A stretch of DNA of 15,005 nt, from the NCBI GenBank assembly GCA_963842945.1, contig CAWJIM010000013.1, positions 1 to 15,005 of the forward strand, written 5' to 3'. A model generated the notes under the pieces. It was not told the DNA's origin and did no database searches. It saw only the letters and a program-made list of their open reading frames with translations. The DNA is from an uncultured Gemmatimonadales bacterium. Its GTDB lineage: Bacteria; Gemmatimonadota; Gemmatimonadetes; Gemmatimonadales; GWC2-71-9. This document shows, piece after piece, positions 766-15,004 of this stretch. Position 1 is the first letter of the stretch, and every line of letters begins with the position of its first letter. A program made the translations under genes and the position numbers.

Positions 766-3360
766 GTGACCAGCGCCGCAGACCGGTTGGACGCCGCTCT
801 GAGCGGCCGGTACGTCATCGAGCGTGAGCTCGGCCGGGGCGGCATGGCCACGGTGTATCTCGCACGCGACCTTCGGCACCGCCGCCATGTCGCGCTCAAA
901 GTGCTCCACCCCGAGCTCTCGGCAGTGCTCGGCTCCGAGCGCTTCCTGAAGGAAATCGAGCTCACCGCCAACCTGCAGCACCCGCACGTGCTTCCGCTCT
1001 TCGATTCCGGTGAAGTCGACGGCCTCCTCTACTATGTCATGCCATTTGTGGATGGCGAGACACTCCGGCGCCGGCTCGAGCGAGAGCAGCAGCTGCCGGT
1101 GGCCGAAGCGGTGCGCATCACCTGCGAGGTAGCCGACGCCCTGCAGTACGCCCACAAGCATGGTGTGGTACATCGCGACATCAAGCCGGAGAACATCCTG
1201 CTCCACGACGGCCGCCCGCTGGTCGCCGATTTCGGGATCGCCCTGGCGGTGCAGCAGGCCGGCGGCAACCGGATGACGCAGACAGGGCTCTCGCTGGGAA
1301 CCCCGCACTACATGGCGCCGGAGCAGGCCACCGGGGAGCGAACCGTCGACCACCGAGCCGACATCTACGCGCTTGGTGCGGTGACCTATGAGATGCTGGC
1401 AGGCGAGCCGCCGTTTACCGGCCCCAGCGCGCAAGCCATCATCGCCAGGATGCTCACCGAGGATCCGCCGGGGCTCACCGCGCATCGGCGGAGCATCCCC
1501 GACCAGGTCGAGGCAGCGGTGCTCACGGCACTGGAGAAGCTGCCGGCGGACCGGTTTGCCAGCGCCGCCGATTTCGCAGCCGCGCTCACCGCCGACGGGT
1601 CCCGTCCGCTCAGCAGGCCCGGGGCAAGGACCTCCAGTGCTGCCCCGGGCCGCTGGCGAGCCGTTGCGCTCGCCGCCACTGCCCTGGCGGTTGCAGCCAC
1701 AGGAATCGCCCTGTGGAACTGGAAGACCAACCCCCGCGCGGCTCCCCCGGTCATCCGGCGCGCCGAGTTCACTATGGCCGGTCAGTTCGAGGTCGGTGGC
1801 GCCCAAGTCGCTGCATCGGCCGACGGGCGTACCATCGCCACGACCGATGGGGGACAACTCGTGGTCCGCCGAGTCGACCGGCTGGAGCTCATCACGGTGC
1901 CTGGCAGCGTGGGAGCGATCGAACCCTTTCTGTCAGCGGACGGCACCCACATCGGCTTTCATCGGCGGGGAGAACTGGTGCTGCAGCGGCTCGATGGCGG
2001 TGACGCAGTGACGATGCCGTTCGTCAGCGGTCGCTTCCCGGCAGATGGCGGTGGCGGCAGCGTGGTGGCCATAGACAGCGCCGGGCTCGTGCTCCTGCAG
2101 CCACAATCATCCCGGCGCCAGCTTCTCGTCCCAGCGCCGCGCGGGGTGGAGTTCCTGCAGCCCCAAATGCTACCTGATGGACGCCACGTCCTGTTCAGCT
2201 CGATGCGGGGATCGCCCACGCGCGCACGTATCCTCTCCCTGGACCTGCGGTCCCGTCAGGTGGATACCCTGTTGGACGAGAGCGGCCTGCGTCCTCAGTT
2301 CGCCGATGGTCGGCTCTATTTCATCCGCCCGGACGGAACCCTGCAGGCGATCGATTTCGATCCGGTGAAGGCGCGCACTCGCGGCACGGTCGTGCCGACC
2401 GGGGACGTGACCCTCATCGCCCGCACCGGCCGGGTGGCGTTCGCCGCGGGTGCGGGGCTCTTGGTCTCCGCCCAGCGGCCGGACAACCGGGTCGTGATTC
2501 TGTCGCCCGACGGCCGGCGCGAGGTGCTGACCACCGAGCTAGGCACCTTTCACAACCCGCGAGTCTCTCCCGATGGCCGACGCATCGTGCTCGATCGGAA
2601 CGTGGGCGGCCGGCAAGGACGGGACGTGTGGGTCCTCGACCGTACCACCCGCGGGTTGAGCCGCATCACCTATAAGGGCGACGCCCACGACCCAGTTTGG
2701 ACCCCCGATGGACATCACGTCACTTATCTATCCCTCGGAACTTCAGAAGGGCCGATTTTCACCGCGTCGGCAGACGGGGATGCCGGCGAGCGTCACATGA
2801 CCATCCCCGGCCTGGTCCACCCGGGCGTGTGGCTTCCCGACGGACGGCGCTACGTGGTCGGTTATGGGGAAATCGAGAATGGACCGAGCGACATTGTCAT
2901 ACTGAATGCCGACGGCGGCCCGCCCGAGCCGGTGGTCACGTCGCCCTACGAGGAGCACTCGCCTGCCCTCTCGCCGGATGGCCGCCTGATGGCGTACATG
3001 AGCGACGAGACCGGTCTCAGGCAGGTGTACGTGCGCGGGCTCAGCCGTCAAGGAGGTCGCACCCTGGTCTCCGAGGGGCCCGGAGAGGAGCCGGTATGGA
3101 GCCGCGATGGCCGACGCCTCTACTATGTCGAGCATCAGGGCGCCACGTCGCGGCTCCTTGCCGCGCACATCGACCCGGCCAGGCCAGGCGCACCGCCGCG
3201 GGTGGCCTCGCGGGAGATTGTCATCGACCCGCTCCGCTACGATCCCGTCAGCAATCATGCGAACTGGGACGTGACACCCGATGGCCGTTTCGTCTTCATC
3301 GAGCCGCTCTCGGGGGGCCGATTAATGATGGTCTTCGATTGGAGGCCGACAGGGCGGTAG
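766..3360 (+). CDS. Hanks-type Ser/Thr protein kinase with a transmembrane helix and C-terminal TolB-like (PD40/WD40-like) beta-propeller
   Basis: Kinase motifs GRGGMATVY, VALK, HRDIKPEN, DFG and GTPHYMAPE. Hydrophobic segment WRAVALAATALAVAATGIALWNW. Repeated P-x-x-S-P-D-G motifs (PRVSPDGRR, PVWTPDG, PALSPDGR, PVWSRDGR). GTG start. Confidence 0.95.
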   Translation: MTSAADRLDAALSGRYVIERELGRGGMATVYLARDLRHRRHVALKVLHPELSAVLGSERFLKEIELTANLQHPHVLPLFDSGEVDGLLYYVMPFVDGETLRRRLEREQQLPVAEAVRITCEVADALQYAHKHGVVHRDIKPENILLHDGRPLVADFGIALAVQQAGGNRMTQTGLSLGTPHYMAPEQATGERTVDHRADIYALGAVTYEMLAGEPPFTGPSAQAIIARMLTEDPPGLTAHRRSIPDQVEAAVLTALEKLPADRFASAADFAAALTADGSRPLSRPGARTSSAAPGRWRAVALAATALAVAATGIALWNWKTNPRAAPPVIRRAEFTMAGQFEVGGAQVAASADGRTIATTDGGQLVVRRVDRLELITVPGSVGAIEPFLSADGTHIGFHRRGELVLQRLDGGDAVTMPFVSGRFPADGGGGSVVAIDSAGLVLLQPQSSRRQLLVPAPRGVEFLQPQMLPDGRHVLFSSMRGSPTRARILSLDLRSRQVDTLLDESGLRPQFADGRLYFIRPDGTLQAIDFDPVKARTRGTVVPTGDVTLIARTGRVAFAAGAGLLVSAQRPDNRVVILSPDGRREVLTTELGTFHNPRVSPDGRRIVLDRNVGGRQGRDVWVLDRTTRGLSRITYKGDAHDPVWTPDGHHVTYLSLGTSEGPIFTASADGDAGERHMTIPGLVHPGVWLPDGRRYVVGYGEIENGPSDIVILNADGGPPEPVVTSPYEEHSPALSPDGRLMAYMSDETGLRQVYVRGLSRQGGRTLVSEGPGEEPVWSRDGRRLYYVEHQGATSRLLAAHIDPARPGAPPRVASREIVIDPLRYDPVSNHANWDVTPDGRFVFIEPLSGGRLMMVFDWRPTGR

Positions 3361-3390
3361 GGCTCCGGGGGGCTTCCCCTAGAAAATGCG

Positions 3391-4512
3391 CTACAGCCGA
3401 AAGAAACCCTGCAGGTCCGCCACGATAGCTTGCGTGAGGTCATCCTGGGTGGTCAATACATCTCCTACCACCCTGTCGTATCGATTGGACCACAAGTACG
3501 AGCCGTCACTGGTGTCCAGCAGCCGGACGATCAGTCGTACTCGACTCCCGACTTGCCGGATGATCCCTTCCAGAATGGCATTGGGCCCAGGACGGGGCAG
3601 CCGCTCCAGCGAGCCCACCGCCGTGACCCGCACCGACTCCAATCCGGCCAATCCACTCCTGAGGTCTTCGACCAAACCTTCCGCCAGGTAGGTCTCGGGC
3701 ATCGAGCCGAGCTTGGTGAAGGGGAGGATGGCGATGAAAATCCGGCCGCGCGGGCTCACCAGAGCGGAGCCCGATACCGCCGCCGTCTGACGCAGCCGGT
3801 CGGCCAGGGCCAGCACCGCGGGATTGGGTGATGCCTCCAGCTCCCGGTTGAGACCTTCCTCATATCGGCGGGCACTCTGCAGCGCCCCGGCCCGGTCTCC
3901 ATGCGCGGCCAGCGCCGACATGAGCCGGATGATCACCCGGGAGCTGAGCGGCTCGTACTCGGCCAGCTTACTCCACCATCGCGCCGCCTCGGCCCGGTTC
4001 CCCCGCGCCTCTGCTTCGATCGCCAGGGTCTCCAACGCCTCGGTGAATGCCCGGGCGCAGGCCACCCGCTCTCCTTCGACCCAGCGCTCGAACTCGGGAG
4101 CTCCGCTCAGGAAGAACCCGTCCAGGAAGGGGCCGCCCATAGCAGGCGACCGCCTGCTCCGACTCTCCGGCTGACACGCCGCCTTGAACTCGGCCACATC
4201 GCTGCCGATCCGGCTCGAGTCGAGACGGATCTCCGCATTTCCCGGAGATACGATGACGTCGCCCAGACGCCGCCGAAGCGCGTGGCACAGCTGACTCAGC
4301 CGGTGGCGCACTTTCTTCGCATCGGCCTCCGGCCACAACCAGGCAACCAGCTTGTCACGGCTCAGACCCCGCTCACCGGCGGAAGCCAGCAGCGCGAGCA
4401 GGGCCAGCGACTGAGGCTGAGCCGCTGTCCCGCGCACGGCACCCGCTGGTCCTACCACTGCGGGACTACCAAAGGTCCTCAGCCTGAGACCGAGAGCAGG
4501 GGCGTCTGACAT
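3391..4512 (-). CDS. BTAD/SARP-family transcriptional activator with C-terminal TolB-N-like (IAILPF) domain
   Basis: N-terminal winged-helix (LRTFG...LALLALL...SRDKLVAWLWPE), BTAD region (SDVAEF...GPFLDGF...EFERWVEGER...EPLSSR...LMSALAAHGDRAGAL) and C-terminal IAILPF...LWSNRYDR domain. A compensated frameshift pair is likely near 4140-4175, because the alternative frame reads GESEQAVACYG. Confidence 0.9.
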   Translation of the reverse strand: MSDAPALGLRLRTFGSPAVVGPAGAVRGTAAQPQSLALLALLASAGERGLSRDKLVAWLWPEADAKKVRHRLSQLCHALRRRLGDVIVSPGNAEIRLDSSRIGSDVAEFKAACQPESRSRRSPAMGGPFLDGFFLSGAPEFERWVEGERVACARAFTEALETLAIEAEARGNRAEAARWWSKLAEYEPLSSRVIIRLMSALAAHGDRAGALQSARRYEEGLNRELEASPNPAVLALADRLRQTAAVSGSALVSPRGRIFIAILPFTKLGSMPETYLAEGLVEDLRSGLAGLESVRVTAVGSLERLPRPGPNAILEGIIRQVGSRVRLIVRLLDTSDGSYLWSNRYDRVVGDVLTTQDDLTQAIVADLQGFFRL

Positions 4513-4548
4513 CTGTCTGACAGGGCTCTGATGGGGTTGGGCTATTGT
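4504..4548 (+). promoter_or_regulatory. putative SARP/BTAD operator: three 11-bp-phased direct repeats plus a -10 box
   Basis: GTCTGACA (4504-4511), GTCTGACA (4515-4522) and CTCTGATG (4526-4533) occur at exact 11-bp spacing, followed by TATTGT at 4543-4548, upstream of the 4599 gene. Confidence 0.6.
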
Positions 4549-4598
4549 AGCCCTCGGTACTCAGCCCGGCAAGCAAACCTTGGATCAGGAGGTGGCTC

Positions 4599-5156
4599 AT
4601 GCGCTCCCATCAATTCCCTCTCGGCGGCCTGGTTGCTCTGAGCCTCCTCATCAGCTGCGACCAGTCCTCCCCAGTTTCGCCATCTGGCGCCTCATCGGCC
4701 GACATCCCCATGGCAACTTCGGCAGGGTCCCGGCCCTGGAAGGAGTCGTACCACTCCACCGGCACCATCACCGCCGCCGCCCAGTGCCCGTCACCCCTTC
4801 TCCTCGAGAGCTACCAGGGCGGCGGTACTGCGACCCACACTGGCAAGTACGATATTGTGAACTCTCACTGTCTCGATCCGGCGACCGGCGCCCTGACCAA
4901 TGGCACGTTCGTCAAGACGGTGGCCAGCGGCGATCAGCTCTTCGGCACCTATGTCGGCAGCGCAAGCGTGATTCAGCCGCCGACTCCAGTTGCGATCTTC
5001 GGTATCACCGGTACACTCAGCTTCACCGGGGGCACGGGCAGGTTCACCGGAGCGACCGGCACCACCACGATGTCGGGTACCGAGCAGGCCGATTTCTCTC
5101 AGACGCCGATAGCGACGCAAGACGAGCTCACCATGGTGGGCGAGATCTCCTACTAG
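4599..5156 (+). CDS. predicted lipoprotein, possibly an allene-oxide-cyclase/dirigent-like beta-barrel
   Basis: AGGAGG RBS upstream. Signal peptide ends in the lipobox LISC. The body is beta-rich and contains FTGGTGRFTGATG, a motif seen in AOC/dirigent-like barrels. Confidence 0.75.
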   Translation: MRSHQFPLGGLVALSLLISCDQSSPVSPSGASSADIPMATSAGSRPWKESYHSTGTITAAAQCPSPLLLESYQGGGTATHTGKYDIVNSHCLDPATGALTNGTFVKTVASGDQLFGTYVGSASVIQPPTPVAIFGITGTLSFTGGTGRFTGATGTTTMSGTEQADFSQTPIATQDELTMVGEISY

Positions 5157-5167
5157 GAGGATGAACC

Positions 5168-6919
5168 ATGACCGCTTCGACCGCAGCGTCACTCAGGCAG
5201 ACCCGCGCGTCTCCCGTTTCCATTCCGGCCCCCACCGGCCAGTCGCAGCTCGAAGCCGCGGTGGCTCGGCTCCGTGAGAACGCCCGCAAGTTCACCGGGT
5301 TGTCACTCGATGAGCGGGCGCAGCTCGCTCGCTCGATGCAGGCCGGCTACCTTCGGGTCGCTCGGGCCAGCGTCGAGGCCGCCTGCGCCGCCAAGGGAAT
5401 TCCTCTCGGCAGTCCGCTGGAGGGGGAGGAATGGACCCTGGGACCCTGGTTCGTCGTGCGGCAGCTCCGGCTGATCCGCCAGTCGCTGCTCGCCCTCAAG
5501 CACATCGGCAACACTCCTATCGGGCAGGTCGGCCGCACGGTCGACCAGCGGATCGCGGTGCAGGTCTTCCCCGCGGGAACCATAGACGGGATGCTGTTCC
5601 AGGGAGTCCGGGTAGACGTGCACCTGCAGTCCGGAATCACCGAGGAGGAGATGAATGCCAGTAGAGCCAGCTTCTACAAGTCCCCCGATCACGAGGGCCG
5701 AGTAGTGCTGGTGCTCGGCGCCGGCAACATCAGCGGGATTCCCACCAAGGACCTGCTCACCAAGATGTTCAACGAGGGGAAGGTGTGCGTCCTCAAGATG
5801 AACCCGGTCAACGCCTATCTCGGCCCGTTCCTAGAGGAGGCCTTTTCCGACCCGATCCGGCGCGGCTTCCTCGCCGTGGTCTACGGCGGCCCTCAGGAGG
5901 GGGCGTACCTGGCCAACCATCGGGCCGTCGACGAAGTGCACCTCACCGGTTCGGACAAGACCTTCGATCAAATCGTGTGGGGACCGGCAGGACCCGATCG
6001 CGAGCGTCGGAAGGCTGAAGGGAGACCGGTACTGGAGAAGCCGGTCACCGCGGAGCTGGGTAACGTATCGCCGGTCATCGTGGTGCCGGGGCCCTACAGC
6101 GACAAGGAGCTGGCCTATCAGGCTGAAGACGTCGCCGCGGGGCTCACGTTCAATGCCTCCTTCGACTGCAACGCCAACAAGGTCCTTATCCTCCCGAAGG
6201 GCTGGGACCAGCGGGAGGTGTTCCTGGCTGGAGTGGAGCACGCCCTAAGCAAAGCCGCCGCCCGCCGGGCATACTATCCCGGGGCACGGGATCGCTGGCT
6301 GGCCTACTCCAAGGGCCACTCGACGATCCGCCGCTTCGGCTCCGAGTCGGAGGACGTGCTCCCCTGGACGATGGTTCGCGATGTCGATCCGAGCAACCGC
6401 GACGAACCCGCTTTCGCCTCGGAATCGTTCTGCCCCATCCTGTTTCAGACCGAGATCGGAAGCGCCGATCCGGTCGAATTCCTGGACCGGGCGGTGACCT
6501 TCGCCAACGAGCGGCTCTGGGGAACGCTCTCCGCCGGACTGGTGATTCATCCCAAGACCAGCAAGGACCCCACACTTGGCCCGGCGGTGGAGCGGGCTAT
6601 CACCAAGCTGCGCTACGGCTCGGTCAACGTGAACGCCTGGTCCGGTTATGTGTTTGCCTTCGGAACGCCACCCTGGGGCGCGCATCCCAGCTCGACCCTT
6701 GCCGACATTCAGAGCGGCCGAGGCTGGGTGCACAACACCCCGATGCTGGAGGGGATCGAGAAGGCGGTGCTGCGGCATCCGATCACCGCGATGCCGAAGC
6801 CGACGTATTTCCCCTCTCATCGAAGCGCCCACGTCCTGATGCGGCGCATGACGACGTTGGAGGAGAACGCCAGCTGGACCCGGGTACCCGGCGTGATGGC
6901 GGCGGCAATGAAAGCGTGA
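5168..6919 (+). CDS. aldehyde dehydrogenase family protein (long, atypical subfamily)
   Basis: VLVLGAGN, LKMNPVN, HLTGS, catalytic Glu in TAELGNVSP, catalytic Cys in NASFDCNA, ESFCP and FANERLWGTL. The GGAGG RBS overlaps the upstream stop codon. Confidence 0.9.
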   Translation: MTASTAASLRQTRASPVSIPAPTGQSQLEAAVARLRENARKFTGLSLDERAQLARSMQAGYLRVARASVEAACAAKGIPLGSPLEGEEWTLGPWFVVRQLRLIRQSLLALKHIGNTPIGQVGRTVDQRIAVQVFPAGTIDGMLFQGVRVDVHLQSGITEEEMNASRASFYKSPDHEGRVVLVLGAGNISGIPTKDLLTKMFNEGKVCVLKMNPVNAYLGPFLEEAFSDPIRRGFLAVVYGGPQEGAYLANHRAVDEVHLTGSDKTFDQIVWGPAGPDRERRKAEGRPVLEKPVTAELGNVSPVIVVPGPYSDKELAYQAEDVAAGLTFNASFDCNANKVLILPKGWDQREVFLAGVEHALSKAAARRAYYPGARDRWLAYSKGHSTIRRFGSESEDVLPWTMVRDVDPSNRDEPAFASESFCPILFQTEIGSADPVEFLDRAVTFANERLWGTLSAGLVIHPKTSKDPTLGPAVERAITKLRYGSVNVNAWSGYVFAFGTPPWGAHPSSTLADIQSGRGWVHNTPMLEGIEKAVLRHPITAMPKPTYFPSHRSAHVLMRRMTTLEENASWTRVPGVMAAAMKA

Positions 6920-6989
6920 ATGTAGAGCGGCATCTGGCTGGGCTCCTCCCAGGGTGGTATTCTATCGGAGAGCCCTCCGGATACCCACT

Positions 6990-9281
6990 TTGCCAGATCT
7001 GCAGGACCAGCTCACGGCCACCCTCCACGGCCGCTACACCATCCGCCGCGAGATCGGCCACGGCGGGATGGCGGTCGTTTATCTCGCCCACGACCTCAAG
7101 CATGACCGTGATGTGGCGCTGAAAGTGCTCCACACCCGTTTGGCGGAAGTGCTGGGACGGGAGCGGTTCCTGCGGGAGATCCGGACGGCGGCGCAGCTGC
7201 ATCATCCTCATCTCCTGCCGCTCTATGATTCGGGGGATGCCGGCGGGTCCCTCTACTACGTGGTGCCGTTCATCGAAGGCGGGTCGTTGCGTGACCGCCT
7301 GTCTCAGGAGGGTCGGCTTGGGTTGGCCGCTTCGCTCCAGATCGCCCGCGAAGTCGCCGGAGCGCTGGACTACGCTCACCGGCACAATGTGGTGCATCGC
7401 GATATCAAACCGGAGAACATTCTGCTGGACGAGGGCCATGCCGTCGTTGCCGACTTCGGGATAGCACGCGCGATCAGCGAGGCGGCCGATGCCCAGATCA
7501 CTCAATCCGGGCTTCTGGTGGGCACGCCGGCGTACATGAGTCCGGAGCAGGCCGCTGAGGAAGAAATCGACGGGCGGAGCGATATCTACGGGCTCGGGTG
7601 CGTGTTGTTCGAACTATTGACCGGAGAGCCCCCGTTTGGGGGAAAGACTCCGCTGGGCACTCTGGCTCGCCGGCTAACCGAGAGGGCGCCCCGACTCTGC
7701 GATCGCGGGGTCTCGGCGCTGCCCCGATTGGAAGAGACGATGGCTTGCGCACTGGCCCGTCATGCCGAAGACCGTTTTGCTACTGCGGGCGAGTTCGCGG
7801 AGCAGCTCGCCGCGGCGGCGAGTGAAATCACTCAGCCTCCGGGAATGCTCAGCGGCGAACTCGGACATCCCGTCCCTTCGGGCACGGCGCAGCTCGAGCG
7901 CCACGCCATTGCCGTTCTCCCCTTCGTCAATCTCAGCACGGAGCGGGAGAACGAGTACTTCAGTGACGGCATGGCGGAGGAGATCATCAACGCGCTGACC
8001 CAGGTGAAGGGGCTGCGGGTTGCGGCGCGAACCTCCTGCTTTGCGTTCAAGGGGAAGGACCTCAATGCTCAAACCATTGCCCAGCGGCTGAGGGTGAACA
8101 GCCTGGTCGAGGGAAGCATACGCAAGCTGGGCAACCGAATCCGCCTTACCGCTCAGTTGGTCGATGGAGCAGATGGTTATCAGCGGTGGTCCCAGACCTA
8201 CGAGCGCACCATGGACGATGTCTTTGCCTTACAGGAAGAGCTGGCCCAGGCAATCGTGCGTGAGCTCCCGCTTCCGGTCTCCGCGTCGGCGGCACTAGTG
8301 TAAGCCCGTAACGGAGAACCTGGAGGCCTATACCCTGTACATGAGAGGGCGGTACTTCGCCAATAAGCGGACGCCGGACGGTCTTCGGGTAGCCACCCAA
8401 CACTTCGAGCAGGCGATCGAGCTGGACCCATTCTCCGGTCCGGCGCGGAGCGGCTTGGCCGCCTGCTTGTCGCTGCGGGGATTCGAGGAGTTCGGTGACC
8501 TGCCGCCCTGCCAGGCGATGCCGAGGGCGAAAGCAGCGGCACTCAGAGCCATCGAGATCGACCCGGCGAACGCCGAGGCCCATCTCTGGCTGGGGGTGGT
8601 GCCATGTTGTTTGACTGGGACCGGAACCGATCCGAGGTGGAGTTGAAGATGGCAGCGGAGTCAGGCCAGAACCCGATTGCGCAGCTATGGTATGCTGTTT
8701 TTCTGGCGAGCAGATCGAGGCTACGAAGAGAGCATCGCGTGCATTCTCCGGGCTCAGGCGCTCGACCCGCTCTCCCTGCCGGTTCACCAGACCGTTGCCC
8801 GCTGTTACGCCTGGGCAGGGGAGTACGAGAAGGCGCTGGAGCAGCTGCGGGCAACGCAGCAGATGGAGCCGCACCATCCGTTGATCTACGCCTGGTTGGG
8901 ACGAGTATTCCTGGGGATGGGCCGCTTCCAGGACGCATTGGCCGAAGTACAAAAGGGCATGGAGGTCGTCGGCAGGCTGCCGCTTTTGCTCCAGCTCGCC
9001 GGGGTGGCCTATGGCCAGCTGGGCCGCAGGCAGAAGCGGGGACGATCGTCCAGGAGCTGCGGGAGCTATCGACCCGTCAGTACGTGTCCCCGATTTACCA
9101 GGCGTATGTTCTGGGGGCGATGGGTGAGCTGGACGAGGCCTTTCGAATGTTCGACCGCGCCGTAGAGCAACGGAGCGGGCTCCTGTGCGTTACTGAATGT
9201 TACCCAGGAAAATGCCGCCACGCTGTTAGATCGGATCCGCGATTCGCCGCGTTGTTGAAGAAGGTTGGGCTCGAGGAGTAG
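6990..9281 (+). CDS. Ser/Thr protein kinase with TolB-N-like domain and TPR repeats (about 4 frameshifts in this assembly)
   Basis: Kinase motifs GHGGMAVVY, VALK, HRDIKPEN, DFG and GTPAYMSPE, then an IAVLPFVNLS...YFSDGMAEEI domain. The TPR tail (EAYTLYMRGRYF, AIELDP, FDWD, ALDPLS, RSDPRFAALLKKVG) is split across ORFs 8341, 8604 and 8677, with shifts near 8300, 8600, 8720 and 9030. Start taken as TTG at 6990; the ORF opens at 6954. Confidence 0.88.
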
Positions 9282-9335: not shown

Positions 9336-10315
9336 CTACTGCGCCAGCTGCAGCGGATCGATCCCCTTGCTCGCATCGAAGGAAGATCCCACCGCGGCCA
9401 CCACCGCCCGCTTGCGATCGAGCGCCGCGAACTCGCGAATACGATAGACCGCTTCGATGCCGGTACAGTGCCCGCCCAGCAAGTAGCCCAGCTGCGCAGC
9501 CTTGAGCCGGCCGGCGGTCCAGGCCACGGCGGAATCACTCGCGGCGAACAGGTGGAGCCCGCCGATCAGGGCGTACACCGGCTCCGGCCCGAGGATTTTG
9601 CGGCCATACTCGACGGTGTTGATGGTGCCGGCGTGGCCGCACCCGACGATCACGACCATCCCCCGATCGGTGTTGACGATCAAGGCCATGTCCTCGGGAA
9701 TGGAGTCGGGAACCAGGCCTCCGCTGGTCACGATGCTGGTGGGCGTCCCCGAAGCCGCTCCGGGTTCGGGCGAGGGACCGGGCCGCTGACCCAGACGCCG
9801 GGGAACAGCTCCACCGGAGTCCGGTGCTCCACGAAGACCGCGCCGGAACTTTCCATACCGGATTTGATGGCGATAGTGGGATTCGCCTCTTGCTCGCTGC
9901 CGGGATGGCGGCGGCTGAGGAAAATCCCCGGAGCCACATGAACCCGGGAGAGCGCCGCCGGTGTCTTGCCGGCCAGCTCTCGCCTGAGGCTAAGCAGGCC
10001 GCCGGTGTGGTCGCCGTGGTGATGACTCAGGACCACATCGGTGACGGTGGATAAGTCGATCCCCAGCTCGCGGGCGTTCTGCAGTACGGTCCCGGGCCGG
10101 TTGCCGGTGTCGAACAGAATGCGGTGGCCGTCGGCTTCCACCAGGGCGGAAAAGCCCCACTCGCCGATACCCGGATCGGCGAGCATGGTCGACAGGATGG
10201 TGACCTTGAGCGACTTGACCCGGTGTCCCGCCCGGCCGGAATCAGTGGGATGAGCGACGGCACCAGTGGTGAGAACGACTCCGATCGCCAGACAGAAGGC
10301 ACGCGAGCTTGGCAT
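9336..10315 (-). CDS. MBL-fold metallo-hydrolase (DHPS-like/MJ0301-type subfamily) with N-terminal signal peptide; one frameshift near 9750
   Basis: GEWGFSALVE, ILFDTG, SHHHGDHTGG (HxHxDH), EDMAL, GCGHAG, IGGLHL and GHCTG motifs lie across ORFs 9728..10582 and 9336..9731. ATG at 10315 is preceded by AAGGA. The N-terminus is hydrophobic (AFCLAIGVVLTTGAVA). Confidence 0.88.
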
Positions 10316-10368
10316 AGGCATCCTTTGTAGCCTTAACCTTACGCCCCGGATTCGCTCCCGGCCATACC

Positions 10369-10439
10369 GGCGGTAAGGCGGTAAGGCGGTAAGGCGGTAA
10401 GGCGGTAAGGCGGTAAGGCGGTAAGGCGGTAAGGCGGTA
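10369..10439. repeat. octanucleotide tandem repeat (GGCGGTAA)x8 plus a 7-nt partial ninth copy
   Basis: Eight perfect copies at 10369-10432, then GGCGGTA at 10433-10439. It lies between the divergent MBL and CHAD-CYTH genes. Confidence 0.97.
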
Positions 10440-10521
10440 CTCGGTTGTCTACGCTTGGAGATCTGGCCGATAGCTGGAGGAGAGGTTATCACTCCCAAGA
10501 ACCGCAGCAGGTTGGTGCCGT

Positions 10522-12081
10522 ATGCAACTACCCCCCGATATCCTCCGACTTCTCGCCAAAGAAGGCGCCCGCCGCCTGGCACTCGAGCACCTCAAGGCCG
10601 CCGCCGCTCTGCGCGACCGGCTGGCCGACCCCGCCGATCCGGAAGGGCTGCACGACTTCCGGGTCGCCATCCGGCGGCTCCGAAGCGCGCTCCGGGCCTA
10701 TGAGCCCGAGATCCGCTCCACCGTCCGCAAAGGGACACTGAGCAAACTCGAGCGAGTGTCCGACGCCACCCGGGAGAGTCGCGACCTGCAGGCCCATCTC
10801 GAGTGGCTGAATGAACAGCGCGAGGACCTGGCGCCGGAGGAACAGCCCGGTCTCGCCTGGCTGATCAGCCGGCTGGAACAGGATCGCCGCCGCGCGTGGG
10901 ACGAGATGACCAAAAAGATCGACGCGACCTTCGCCGGCATGGCCGAGCGGCTGGATGACGAGCTGAAGACGTTTCGGACCCGGATTCGGCTGGACGGCTC
11001 CCGCCGCCGGCAGTCGATGGCCCGGGTGACCTCCGAACGGCTCGCCGACGCGGCCGATCGGCTTCGGGACCGGCTCTCCCGCGTGCACCAGTTCACCGAC
11101 GAGGAGCCGATCCACCGGGCCCGGATCGCCGCCAACGGGTGCGCTACCTGCTGGAGCCGTTCGCCGAGAACTAGACGATGGACCCGGGATCGTTCACCAA
11201 TTGAAGGATCTGCAGGACAGTTTCGGTGACGTACACGACGTGCACGTGTTCACCGGCACGCTGGGCGACGCGCTGGCCGAAGCGACCCGGATCGACATTG
11301 CCGCCAAATCGCCGGACGAGAGCCGCTGGTGCCCGGGCTCTCCGCACTGGAGAAAGCGCTTCGGGACCGCGGGTCGAAGGCGTTTGCCAAAGCACAGGAT
11401 TCCTGGCTGGGCGACAAGTCCGCCGGGTTCTTCCAGTCAGCGGACCGGGTCGGCCAGGCGATCGGCAGCGAAACGAGCCGGGATCAGGAGATCGAGCGGA
11501 AATTCCTGCTGAACGGATTGCCGGCGTTCGACCGGCCCGACTCAGTCGCGGAGATCGAGCAGGGCTACCTGCCGGGTAAGAAGCTGATCGAGCGAATCCG
11601 CCGGGTCCGCTCCGAAGGAAGGGAAGAGTTCCTCCGGACTATTAAGGAAGGGACCGGGATGACGCGACTCGAGGTGGAGGAGCCGGTGCCGGCCGAATTG
11701 TTCGACCAGCTCTGGCCCCTGACCGAAGGACGGCGGCTCCGGAAGCACCGCCACAAGGTGAAGGATGGCAAGCTGACCTGGGAGATCGACGAGTTTCAGG
11801 ACCGGGACCTGGTGCTGGCGGAGGTGGAGCTCGATTCTCCCTCGGCCGAGGTCACCGTACCCGACTGGCTTCGTCCTCATCTGGTGCGGGAGGTTACCGA
11901 CGACTCCAGGTACAGCAACTATCCGGCTGGCCTGCGATTCGGGGAAGGACGAGGAGAGCCCCGCGCCATCGAGTCCCCAGCCAGAGTCCCAGGCCGCTCG
12001 CCGCAGCCAGCGTTACCAGGCGCGCTCCCGCGATCCGGCGAAATTCACCCCGACCCAGCGCAAGTGAGAACACCAGCTTGA
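10522..12081 (+). CDS. CHAD domain + CYTH (triphosphate tunnel metalloenzyme) domain protein; frameshifted in this assembly, 3' end uncertain
   Basis: CHAD motifs LHDFRVAIRRLRS, RDLQ, IHRARIAA[K]RVRYLLE and LKDLQDSFGDVHD. CYTH motifs EIERKFL, IEQGYL, RIR, RLEVE, LRKHR, WEIDEF, LAEVEL and EVTDDSRYSN. Frame shifts near 11135, 11170-11200 and 11320. Recognisable homology ends at about 11925. Confidence 0.85.
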
Positions 12082-13210
12082 GAGCGGTGTTGGAGAGAAC
12101 TCCGATCGCGATCGCCGTGGCGGCCAACTCGAGCGCGAACCCACCACCCATGCGGGTAATCGAGTAAGTCAGCGCATCCACGTCGGTGAGCCCGACGAAC
12201 GCGGCCGAGGCGAGCACACCCGACGATCCCCACAGGTGCTGCACGAAAGGCAGGAGCACCACCACCGTCTGGAAGGCGAGCGCCAGCCGGATCGCGTTCC
12301 CCAGCCGAAGAGGGTTCCGCGCCTGCTCGGCCTTGCCGCGGCCACGCTCGGGAGGGCGGAGGCGGTAGGAGCGGCTTTGCAATTCAGCTGCACAGGCGCG
12401 GATCGGCGGTGGCAGCGCCACCCCCAGCTGCAGTAGGGTCGCGACCAGTCCGACCCGTACCGCCAATACGGTACAGGCCCCCACGACGCCGAGCGCGAGC
12501 CCGCGGCCGAGCTCCGGGTTCTCCTTGCTCCGGCGGGCGAACTGCCAGGTGACCGCGGTGGAGGAGACCAGCCCGCCGAGCAATCCGGTGACGGCATATC
12601 CTCGGCTGGCGCCGAGCCAGCGGCCGATGAGGTATCCGGCGAAGTTGAGCGCGGAGAAGAGCAGCACCACGACCCAGATCGCGCGGGGCTTGATGCTGTC
12701 GTAGGGCCCGTATGGCCCCTCGGGCGGGACCGGAAGGATGACCAGGGCCGAGCGAACTGGAGCGCCGCTCGAAGCTCCCCCTCTCCCAGCCGCTCGATCG
12801 CTCCGTGAATCCGGGTCTTCTCCGCCAGGGCGAGAACCATCACCGCCGCCGGCTGCCGGTGACCGGGGATAGCCCAGGGTTGAGATGGCAGCGATGGCCA
12901 GGACCACCAGGGCGGCGACCTCCGTGGTTCCGTCCACCGTCTCGCTGTGGCGGGTGGTCATGACGTACGCGGCCACCGTCGGAGCGACGCCGCTCCCGAG
13001 GAGAAGCACACCCGGCGCCATCAGGCCACCCTGGATGAGCCAGCCGGCCGAGGCCACCGAGCACTCCCAGCAGGAAAAAGGTCCGGACGCCGGCAAACCG
13101 GGCCTCCGGTCCTCGGGCGTGGCCGGGCCATTCTCGCTCGATGCCGACGGCAAGGCCCGCGAGGGCGGCTCCACGGCCAGACGGCCGGCAACGGCGAGGT
13201 CCAGGGTCAT
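11894..13210 (-). CDS. MgtC/SapB-family N-terminal domain + DUF4010 integral membrane protein; frameshifted in this assembly
   Basis: An alternative frame near 13170-13050 reads AALAGLAVGIEREW...RFAGVRTFFLLG (MgtC motif). Also GTTEVAA, LNFAGY, TGLLGGLVSSTAVT, NPLRLGNA, GLTDVDA and SNTALK, with many TM segments. ATG at 13210, 13 nt after the moaD stop. The true stop may be nearer 11960. Confidence 0.82.
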   Translation of the reverse strand: MTLDLAVAGRLAVEPPSRALPSASSENGPATPEDRRPGLPASGPFSCWECSVASAGWLIQGGLMAPGVLLLGSGVAPTVAAYVMTTRHSETVDGTTEVAALVVLAIAAISTLGYPRSPAAGGGDGSRPGGEDPDSRSDRAAGRGGASSGAPVRSALVILPVPPEGPYGPYDSIKPRAIWVVVLLFSALNFAGYLIGRWLGASRGYAVTGLLGGLVSSTAVTWQFARRSKENPELGRGLALGVVGACTVLAVRVGLVATLLQLGVALPPPIRACAAELQSRSYRLRPPERGRGKAEQARNPLRLGNAIRLALAFQTVVVLLPFVQHLWGSSGVLASAAFVGLTDVDALTYSITRMGGGFALELAATAIAIGVLSNTALKLVFSLALGRGEFRRIAGARLVTLAAASGLGLWLGTRWRGALLVLPRIAGQPDSCCTWSRR

Positions 13211-13223
13211 GCTAGAGGCTAGC

Positions 13224-13499
13224 CTAGCCTCCCGCCACCGCAATCACCACGGTGATCTCGTCGCCCTCGGTCACCGGCGCCTCGAACCCGCCGAGGAACC
13301 GGGTGTCCCGGTCGTTGAGATAGAAGCCGACGAAGGGATAGGGGCCGCCGTGCTCGTCCTTGAGCCGCGGCGCCAGCCGGGGAAACGGGTCGGACACCTG
13401 GGTCACCACCTCTCCCACCGTCGCTCCGTCCGCCTCAAGCGTGCTCTGGCCGTCGGTCAGCCGGCTCAAAATCGTGGGAAGACTGAATGTCACTGGCAT
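13224..13499 (-). CDS. MoaD/ThiS/CysO-family ubiquitin-like sulfur carrier protein
   Basis: 91 aa with a beta-grasp pattern (LPTIL...GATVGEV...FYLNDRDTRFLGG...GDEITVVIAVAGG) and a free C-terminal Gly-Gly. A GGAG RBS lies directly after the upstream gene's stop. Confidence 0.93.
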   Translation of the reverse strand: MPVTFSLPTILSRLTDGQSTLEADGATVGEVVTQVSDPFPRLAPRLKDEHGGPYPFVGFYLNDRDTRFLGGFEAPVTEGDEITVVIAVAGG

Positions 13500-13511
13500 A
13501 GTCCGATCTCC

Positions 13512-14822
13512 TCAGGGTAGGTACGTCTGCTCCACCAGCGCGGTCAATTCCCTCAACCTCGGCGCGATGGTCGGCAGGTTGCGAATGGTGTCGCCCACGA
13601 CGTCCACGGTCTTGAGTCCATTTCCGGTTATGCAGAGCACCACTTCGTCGTCCGAGTTCAGGTGACGGCTCTCCGCCAGCGCCAGAGCCGCCGCGACCGT
13701 CACTCCACCCGCCGTTTCGGTGAACACGCCGCTGGTCTCCGCCAATAGCCGGATCCCCGCGATCAGCTCCTGCATCCGACACCGCCGCGGCCCAGCCACC
13801 GGTCTCCCGAATGGCCCGCGCCGCGAGAAGACCGTCGGCCGGACTGCCGATGGCCAGTGAGCGCGCAATCGTATCGGGGATCACCGGCTGAATCACGTTC
13901 GCCGTGCTCCGCGCACCAATCGCACGATCGGCGCGCACCCCTCGGCCTGCGCTCCGAAGAGGCGAGGAACGTCCCCGCTCCCACCACCCCGGCCTCGAGG
14001 AACTCGGTGAAGCCCTTCCGGACCTTGGTCACCAGTGAGCCGCCTGCCATCGGCGCGATTACCGCCGTCGGCAGACGCCAGCCCAGCTGTTCCGCGATCT
14101 CGAACGCCACGGTCTTCGATCCCTCGCCGTAGTAGCTCCGGAGATTGACATTAACGATGCCCCAGCCGAACCGGTCGGCCGCCTGGGTGCAGAGCCGGGT
14201 TGACGTCGTCGTAGGTGCCGCGGATCCGAACCACAGGGCGGGCGCCGTACACCGCGGTGCCGATGACCTTGGCCGGGCTCGAGATCGTGGGGATGAAGAT
14301 CCAGGCCGGGAGACCGGCGCGGGCCGACTGCGCCGCCACCGCGTTGGCCAGGTTGCCGGTCGAGGCGCAGCCCACGGTGTCCAGGCCGGAGTGCTCGGGC
14401 CGCGTTGAGGGCGACGGCGACTACCCGATCCTTGAAGGAGAGCGAGGGGTGCGACACGGCGTCGTTCTTGAGCCAGACCCGGGCGACGCCGAGCCGATGG
14501 GCGAGTGCGGGCGGACTCGAGCAGCGGAGTGAAGCCGCTGTCGAGCGAGAGCTCCGGCTTCTCCGTCGAGCGGGAGGAACTCGCGATAGCGCCAGAGCGA
14601 GGGTGGTCACGTTGGGCGATGGTCGCGCGGGGGGGGAGCGTGGGCCGTCCGGATAGACCGGCTCCAATGGACCGAGACAGTGCTCGCACACGCGCGATCG
14701 GTGCCGCATCGTACTCTGCGCCGCAGAGGGCGCAGGCGAGCGGCAGGAGTCCGAACGAGGTGTGGTGGAGCTCGGGAGCCGAGAGGCTCGGGAGGTAAGG
14801 CGATTCCGCCGACGGGAGACAC
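13512..14822 (-). CDS. thrC: threonine synthase-like PLP-dependent (fold type II) enzyme with N-terminal Zn-ribbon; multiple frameshifts in this assembly
   Basis: Stitched frames give CALC...CEHC, LWRYREFLP, GFTPL, PSLSFKDR (PLP lysine), CASTGNLANAVAA, YYGEGSKTVAFEIAEQLGW, PMAGGSL, IARSLAIGSPADG, ETAGGVT and ITGNGLK. Probable GTG start at 14822 behind GGAAAGGA. TGA stop at 13512-13514. Confidence 0.88.
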
Positions 14823-14865
14823 GGTTTCCTTTCCGCCCGCATCGCCGGATGTCCGGTTGGCCCGG

Positions 14866-14900
14866 AAGAAAAAATCCCGGTGCCAGAAAGACACGCGGGA
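14866..14900 (-). terminator. intrinsic terminator in the thrC-like leader (riboswitch expression platform)
   Basis: The minus strand reads TCCCG-C-GTGTC-TTTCT-GGCAC-CGGGA-TTTTTTCTT: a 10-bp stem with one bulge and one G-U pair, followed by a U-tract. Confidence 0.75.
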
Positions 14901-14905
14901 CGCGA

Positions 14906-14956
14906 GGCCTTTTAGCAGTTGTTTAACGTGGCTGCAATAGGCCGCAACTCACCACG
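14906..14956 (-). ncRNA. SAM-II (SAM-alpha type) riboswitch aptamer
   Basis: The minus strand reads CGTGGTGAGTTGCGGCCTATTGCAGCCACGTTAAACAACTGCTAAAAGGCC. It has the SAM-II hallmarks TTGCAGCCACG, TAAA and GCTAAA, the P1 stem CGTGGT/GCCACG, and pseudoknot pairings AGTTG/CAACT and GGCCT/AGGCC. Confidence 0.88.
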
Positions 14957-14975
14957 AAGGAGCAGTTGTACGGCT

Positions 14976-15004
14976 ACGATAGGACTAATCTCTTCCCAGC
15001 GCAA
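14976..15004 (-). promoter_or_regulatory. putative sigma70-type promoter for the riboswitch-thrC-like-moaD operon
   Basis: TTGCGC (15004-14999), a 17-nt spacer, then TATCGT (14981-14976). This predicts a start site near 14969, just upstream of the aptamer. Confidence 0.6.

Follow-up and report, generated by a model that had tools for sequence, protein, structure and literature searches.

A probable SAM-II-controlled metM-metO operon in an uncultured Gemmatimonadales bacterium

Introduction

What does an enzyme of the threonine synthase (ThrC) family make when its gene stands behind a riboswitch for S-adenosylmethionine (SAM) and is followed at once by the gene of a ubiquitin-like sulfur carrier? 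The question is raised by a stretch of 15,005 nucleotides (hereafter the window, corresponding to contig C13, CAWJIM010000013.1) from the assembly GCA_963842945.1 of an uncultured, Gemmatimonadales-like bacterium, a genome of 4.3 Mb in 24 contigs that is 87% complete and 6% contaminated. A preliminary description of this DNA had proposed that the enzyme replaces the phosphate of O-phosphohomoserine or O-phosphoserine with a thiocarboxylated carrier, giving homocysteine or cysteine under SAM feedback. Judged by its sequence features, the locus is very probably a metM-metO operon, in which the carrier thiocarboxylate would replace the phosphate of O-phosphohomoserine to give homocysteine under SAM-II feedback. 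The present analysis provides the parts with their conservation, the gene content of the genome, the tree and the binding model; the reaction as a whole and its helper genes are taken from the literature on the Streptomyces system. The locus represents a well-supported further example of a known route and not a new system.

In Mycobacterium tuberculosis, cysteine is made from O-phosphoserine by CysM, CysO, Mec and MoeZ through beta-replacement with a thiocarboxylate carrier as the donor, and in Wolinella the HcyS, HcyD, HcyF and MetY proteins accomplish carrier-dependent homocysteine synthesis with a MetY-type enzyme and O-acetylhomoserine. The conversion of O-phosphohomoserine into homocysteine by MetM and MetO was described in Streptomyces albulus by Hasebe et al. 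in 2024 (Appl Environ Microbiol 90:e01247-24), and the experimental evidence is listed in GapMind 2026, excerpts of which call MetM “often misannotated”, the wrong name being threonine synthase, and state that Mec is required to mature the S. albulus MetO (PMC13759103). The preliminary description knew of no established function for pairs of ThrC-like and MoaD-like genes, a statement that MetM/MetO renders out of date, and its proposed replacement of phosphate by a carrier thiocarboxylate, probably right, had by then been published. Excerpts of a further paper report a SAM riboswitch upstream of S. albulus metM and a Microcystis homologue, 51.6% identical to MetM, that lies beside a metO-like gene with no riboswitch (PMC12172450).

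The operon and its parts

All named parts of the operon lie on the minus strand, in the order promoter-like site, SAM-II aptamer, terminator, ThrC-family gene and Gly-Gly-ended carrier gene. Each had been picked out in the preliminary description, together with the 12-nucleotide gap, and each was borne out by the Rfam model RF00521, by hidden Markov models or by the sequence itself:

14976..15004, minus strand: sigma-70-like promoter, read from the sequence; -35 box TTGCGC at 15004-14999, 17-nucleotide spacer, -10 box TATCGT at 14981-14976
14892..14965, minus strand: SAM-II (SAM_alpha) aptamer, Rfam RF00521, 42.9 bits; P1 at 14956-14952/14931-14927, pseudoknot P2 at 14943-14932/14918-14906
14869..14900, minus strand: intrinsic terminator (expression platform), hairpin 14900-14875 and U run 14874-14869, -17.1 kcal/mol
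14827..14831, minus strand: ribosome-binding site of the enzyme gene, read from the sequence
13512..14822, minus strand: MetM-like enzyme of the ThrC family, with pyridoxal 5'-phosphate (PLP) as its cofactor; GTG start at 14822, stop at 13512, fragments matching the PALP and thrC models, N-terminal double CxxC
14433-14431, minus strand: PLP lysine codon of the MetM-like enzyme, by motif
13500..13511, minus strand: 12-nucleotide intergenic gap that opens with a GGAG ribosome-binding site, from the sequence
13224..13499, minus strand: MetO-like ubiquitin-fold sulfur carrier of 91 residues with a mature C-terminal Gly-Gly; PF02597, E 7.7e-10

Every MetM/MetO feature open to testing was found, and orthology to S. 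albulus MetM (A0A059WBP2) is suggested solely by way of a proxy from the actinobacterium Nonomuraea. As the preliminary description had stated for the activator and the peptidase, no MoeB- or JAMM-like gene was found among the 13 open reading frames of the window that were scanned; both lie on contig C24.

Affiliation of the enzyme

The named close homologues of the enzyme are labelled “threonine synthase [Gemmatimonadales bacterium]”. NCBIfam holds no model for MetM, and no solved structure is closer than ThrC. The cysteate synthase model TIGR03844 gives 68 bits with an enzyme homologue against a cut-off of 325, and the cysKM models reach at most 28.6 bits on the homologues shown against a cut-off of 344. 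With the ThrC of its own genome the window enzyme shares 35% identity, and with the Nonomuraea enzyme 48%; the Nonomuraea gene is preceded by a SAM-I riboswitch and followed by a MoaD-like gene. A search of a plasmid collection for the Streptomyces MetM returned Nonomuraea and haloarchaeal matches only. In a quick tree of 40 rows, the window and Nonomuraea enzymes fall into one clade of 28 rows (99 in the Shimodaira-Hasegawa-like approximate likelihood ratio test, SH-aLRT) and the thr-operon ThrCs form a separate clade (SH-aLRT 98). The same split from the thr-operon ThrCs was obtained in the first tree, for which 109 of 120 rows were kept after 11 close relatives had been thinned and in which Nonomuraea was left out. 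The enzyme of one genome (G061) groups with Verrucomicrobiota.

The two groups differ in their active-site stretches as well, the 95 members of the MetM-type clade having N-x-N-L-R-x-Y-Y and A-G-G-S where eight ThrCs have N-S-I-N-P-x-R and A-G-N-x-G-N. Taken with the separate thr operon of the genome, the clade and the motifs support the view, put forward in the preliminary description, that the window enzyme is distinct from the housekeeping threonine synthase, and a common misannotation is corrected, as databases name such proteins threonine synthase.

Sulfur and methionine genes of the genome

A canonical thrA-thrB-thrC operon, with thrB above its cut-off, is present on C24 and supplies the second, canonical thrC that the preliminary description had suggested looking for. 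On the same contig (C24:107895-111193) an rrf2-like gene, cysM and mec are clustered with an in-frame fusion of a CysO-type carrier to MoeZ, so that moeZ and mec, also sought, were both found. The fusion has an internal Gly-Gly at the junction, its moeZ part is frameshifted near the end in the assembly, and it recurs at 11 of the 12 Mec loci inspected in relatives; it is the only ThiF-family gene above cut-off in the genome. Two other ThiS-family genes adjoin thiG and moaE/moaA on inspection of the open reading frames. As the other carriers thus have partners of their own (ThiS by thiG, MoaD by moaE and CysO-MoeZ by cysM-mec), this inventory counts in favour of the metM-metO reading.

SAM-II occurs three times in the genome, namely in the window, in its duplicate on contig C12 and 5' of metH and a gene for a bifunctional methyltransferase/MetF protein, and SAM-I was not found. 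The only other non-duplicate SAM-II thus precedes metH, which was counted in favour of a role in methionine synthesis. Absences are to be read against the 87% completeness of the genome: within that limit metA and metY were not found, and metX gave a partial match only (2.9e-27). Two distinct Cys/Met-metabolism PLP proteins were scanned, one of the cystathionine gamma-synthase/lyase type and one unassigned, and neither reached a metY cut-off; a gene resembling that of cystathionine beta-synthase scores slightly below its cut-off. A cysteate synthase is encoded elsewhere (C5, about 70590-71790; TIGR03844, 447 bits against the cut-off of 325).

Homologous loci

Within the genus, the enzyme (E<1e-90) was found in 30 of 36 genomes; it occurs in three of 24 from two other families, to which one fragment is to be added. 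SAM-II lies 5' of the enzyme gene in all 18 relatives' loci scanned (the best DNA matches, one truncated locus being left out). Further afield, counts were made on the best 80 of 597 loci from a scan of species genomes. An upstream SAM riboswitch on the same strand is present in 58 of them (51 SAM-I and seven SAM-II, six of the latter in Gemmatimonadota) and the carrier in 68, three of the other 12 being without downstream DNA; a MoeB/MoeZ-like gene was found in 16, cysM in six, thrB in five, and metY, panB and mec in three each. The presence of two structurally unrelated classes of SAM riboswitch on one enzyme clade gives independent support to the view that the product feeds methionine and SAM. 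As controls, six thr-operon ThrC loci (in four of which the leader was covered by the DNA at hand) and six other ThrC-paralogue loci showed neither a SAM riboswitch nor a carrier.

The composition of related Gemmatimonadales operons bears on the substrate. Those at L072, L073 and L153 add homoserine kinase and MoeZ, the order in the first two being SAM-II-panB-enzyme-thrB-carrier-moeZ, and that at L070 adds MoeZ and an aspartate kinase-homoserine dehydrogenase; the homoserine kinase and homoserine dehydrogenase genes point to O-phosphohomoserine. The MetM/MetO route is extended to Gemmatimonadales and, by way of the homologous loci, to groups that include Acidobacteriota, Verrucomicrobiota, Planctomycetota and Nitrospirota.

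Some further features of these loci may be recorded. In four other Gemmatimonadales genomes, a panB homologue (ketopantoate hydroxymethyltransferase) is enclosed in a MetM operon with SAM-II at its head (L072:2078-2980, L073:2066-2941, L153:7418-8215 and L154:2366-3178), and L070 has a weaker match on the opposite strand. The enzyme of an Anaeromyxobacteraceae record (L148), 68% identical and nested among Gemmatimonadales sequences, belongs to an enzyme-carrier-moeZ-metY cluster in which Rfam matched no riboswitch, and its placement may reflect transfer or mis-binning.

The carrier and its predicted complex with the enzyme

The carrier belongs to the ThiS family and ends at Gly-Gly. Its best matches in the Protein Data Bank (PDB) are the ThiS/MoaD protein 4n6e_B and cfp10A 3dwg_C, which we take to be the CysO of M. 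tuberculosis. When residues 22-430 of the enzyme of an intact relative (P0003) were co-folded with PLP and the window carrier, the predicted complex scored 0.77 against 0.00 for the best control. In the benchmark of this procedure, that mark is attained by 116 of 157 solved pairs and by two of 215 mismatched ones, which serves as a rough guide only where custom alignments and a ligand are used. At least 59% of contacts are common to the runs, with a predicted local distance difference test (pLDDT) score of at least 87 for the partner. In the model, the interface is made up of the last seven carrier residues (85-91) and, on the enzyme, of residues 201-228 and 43-53, with the clade-specific stretches and the CxxC region taking part. 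Many carriers of Acidobacteriota (L080, L085, L100, L112, L120, L124 and others) extend past the Gly-Gly, some with Cys-rich tails, and those of L096, L115 and L119 bear C-terminal fusions of about 80 residues.

The SAM-II leader

The match to RF00521 at 14965-14892, at 42.9 bits (E 5.9e-7), exceeds the gathering score of 36 and is the sole Rfam match in the window; together with P1 and the pseudoknot P2, it shows the features of the SAM-II class. A strict sigma-70 scan returned no site in the window, the promoter-like boxes matching seven of 12 consensus letters; boxes of the form TTG.../TAnnnT with this spacing recur 5' of the aptamer in relatives, several of which have TTGAC there. P1 is invariant in all 19 aligned leaders, and pairing in the helices of the pseudoknot and the terminator amounts to 84-90% across the leaders, with a few two-sided changes. 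Of the cells, 90% pair, against 27-49% with the partners slid, and because the sequences are related these shuffle counts are not probabilities. A hairpin at the position of the terminator is part of the minimum-energy fold in 16 of 20 leaders.

According to excerpts of two papers, most SAM-II switches are transcriptional (PMC6061858, PMC2258182). In the window leader, the 5' strand of P1 folds onto the 5' arm of the terminator before the 3' arm has been made, which makes it a candidate antiterminator. This putative pairing was predicted in only two of the 20 leaders; a second candidate is a weak local hairpin of -4 to -7 kcal/mol.

SAM-II was found in 57 of the 61 genomes of the Gemmatimonadales order and is the common SAM riboswitch there. 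The excerpted sources place the class in alpha-, beta- and gamma-Proteobacteria and Bacteroidetes (PMC6061858, PMC2258182), a literature search for SAM-II in Gemmatimonadota found no report, and the order-wide occurrence constitutes an extension of its range. In four genomes without the enzyme (G037, G057, G059 and G043), SAM-II lies just upstream of metX-like matches.

The broken reading frame

The ThrC-family gene of the window is not a single open reading frame, as fragments matching PALP lie in all three frames and 19 insertions or deletions (indels) separate it from the intact gene of a genome of the same genus (G011). Read with X at the breaks, it contains no stop codons, retains all six motifs checked and is 92% identical (379/411) to the intact P0003. 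Contig C12 carries the locus a second time (93% DNA identity), with seven indels, mostly at other positions, one +1 near codon 43 being common to both copies. Between C12 and C13, indels are found in the neighbours too (the DUF4010 gene has 27, the metallo-beta-lactamase region 12, CHAD-CYTH seven and the enzyme gene 18), and thrA and moeZ elsewhere in the genome are likewise frameshifted. Most substitutions are synonymous (81 codons, against 30 that are not), with 90 changes at third and 11 at second codon positions. Among public sequencing runs the best share of the stretch's words was 0.11, the contigs coming from relatives. The simplest reading is that the 19 indels are probably assembly errors. 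Syntenic stretches are duplicated between C12 and C13 (94% DNA identity, 5.7 kb) and between C19 and C21 (two copies of a cystathionine lyase-peptidase-purD region), which indicates a mixture of strains in the bin.

Proposed mechanism

In the route that we infer for this organism, O-phospho-L-homoserine would be made by the homoserine kinase (thrB) on C24, and the C24 MoeZ, with its fused CysO-type carrier, would adenylate the C-terminal Gly of the window carrier in trans and bring about its conversion into the thiocarboxylate. The charged carrier would dock via the N-terminal CxxC region and the clade-specific helices of the enzyme, the Gly-Gly tail entering the active site, where the gamma-phosphate would be eliminated and the gamma carbon would receive the thiocarboxylate sulfur, in place of an addition of water to the beta carbon. 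Homocysteine might then be released by hydrolysis, or by an S-to-N acyl shift as in CysM/CysO followed by the Mec peptidase, and be methylated by MetH. At high SAM, the SAM-II pseudoknot would be bound and transcription would stop at the terminator, with metH under the same switch. A tentative extension, which we regard as possible but doubtful, is that Gemmatimonadales have a mechanistic variant: a ready Gly-Gly carrier without adjacent helper genes would depend for its charging, in trans, on a MoeZ covalently joined to another, CysO-type carrier, this single E1 also serving ThiS and MoaD, and SAM-II, having replaced SAM-I across the order, would partition protein-bound sulfur between cysteine and homocysteine via the MetM/MetO branch only.

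Comparison with known systems

The locus shares with the MetM/MetO system of S. albulus, as described in the excerpts cited above, a ThrC-like enzyme, an adjacent carrier gene, an upstream SAM riboswitch, and MoeZ and Mec in the genome. It differs in the phylum of the host, in having SAM-II where the Nonomuraea proxy and 51 of the 58 riboswitch-bearing loci have SAM-I, and in a carrier that ends in a mature Gly-Gly whereas the S. albulus MetO needs maturation by Mec. Furthermore, the helpers are encoded away from the operon, and the only MoeZ detected is fused to a CysO-type carrier in the cysM-mec cluster.

With M. tuberculosis CysM/CysO it has in common a fold-type-II PLP enzyme, a phosphorylated substrate and a ubiquitin-fold thiocarboxylate donor, but the gamma-replacement proposed here contrasts with beta-replacement on O-phosphoserine, and the genome holds a cysM-mec-carrier cluster separate from the window. 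ThrC (TIGR00260; PDB 2zsj, 6cgq, 1uim and 2d1f) shares the family, the PLP lysine motif and probably the substrate, and is set apart by its clade, the about 35% identity of the genome's own member, other active-site motifs, the carrier partner and SAM control. The Wolinella route is likewise a carrier-dependent synthesis of homocysteine, but employs a MetY-type enzyme and O-acetylhomoserine in place of a ThrC-like enzyme. As an RNA, the switch resembles other SAM-II members in its pseudoknot aptamer with a terminator and departs from them in its host order, outside the range given in the cited excerpts.

Weighing of the alternatives

Several observations weigh against the metM-metO assignment. 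Membership of the MetM group depends on the Nonomuraea proxy, itself on a long branch, and the intact homologue P0001 scores 254 bits on the thrC model TIGR00260 (cut-off 167), a model that does not separate MetM from ThrC. The Microcystis homologue makes threonine in vitro and, in the excerpts cited, was judged not fully MetM in cells (PMC12172450). The window copy of the enzyme is frameshifted, the co-fold was made with P0003 and not with the window's own enzyme, and its pass may be partly due to likeness with the solved CysM-CysO complex. The genome is incomplete and contaminated to the extent given above, and its cystathionine gamma-synthase/lyase passes one cystathionine gamma-synthase cut-off. 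Lastly, strong metX (E<1e-70) accompanies the enzyme in 17 of the 30 same-genus genomes that have it, beside metY in at least one, so that mutual exclusion of the two across the genus was rejected and the MetM route is not the sole route there.

The TIGR00260 score and the threonine made by the Microcystis homologue would suit a rival reading, in which SAM regulates an additional threonine synthase, or an enzyme of two functions that makes mainly threonine, with the carrier as a bystander; thrB in related operons would fit threonine synthesis too. Such an enzyme is nevertheless unlikely in a genome that already has a canonical thr operon: SAM repression of threonine synthesis would be hard to justify, the carrier accompanies the enzyme in 68 of the best 80 loci and docks in the model, and the active-site residues typical of ThrC have given way to others. 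It is very unlikely that the enzyme is a cysteine synthase of the CysM type that uses O-phosphoserine and the window carrier. The resemblance of the carrier to CysO-type proteins and the occurrence of cysM or mec in six and three of the best 80 loci would suit it, but the enzyme is ThrC-like and at most weak on cysKM models. Of the two products offered in the preliminary description, homocysteine is retained and cysteine from O-phosphoserine is much less likely, because the genome already has cysM, mec and their own CysO-type carrier elsewhere and because homoserine kinase or homoserine dehydrogenase occurs in related operons. It is also improbable that the window copy, though of the MetM family, is a real pseudogene. 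Its 19 indels, the seven of the C12 copy, the shared +1 near codon 43, the low share of the stretch in public runs (at best 0.11) and a distant relative (G051) with only a fragment behind its SAM-II would all be consistent with decay; against this, indels between the copies fall in neighbouring genes too, thrA and moeZ are frameshifted as well, there are no in-frame stops, substitutions are mostly synonymous, and the gene is without internal stops in 30 of the 36 same-genus genomes (three partial at contig ends).

Neighbouring genes

Directly downstream of the carrier gene lies a gene for a DUF4010 membrane protein. Besides it, the regions 5168-6919 and 9336-13243 of the window hold an atypical protein of the aldehyde dehydrogenase family (weak PF00171), a split gene of the metallo-beta-lactamase fold and a split CHAD-CYTH gene. 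By inspection of the open reading frames, 766-9281 contains a transcriptional-activator-like gene and a pair of genes resembling Ser/Thr kinases; beta-propeller-like repeats occur in one of the pair, and the other, frameshifted, has a TolB/TPR-like tail.

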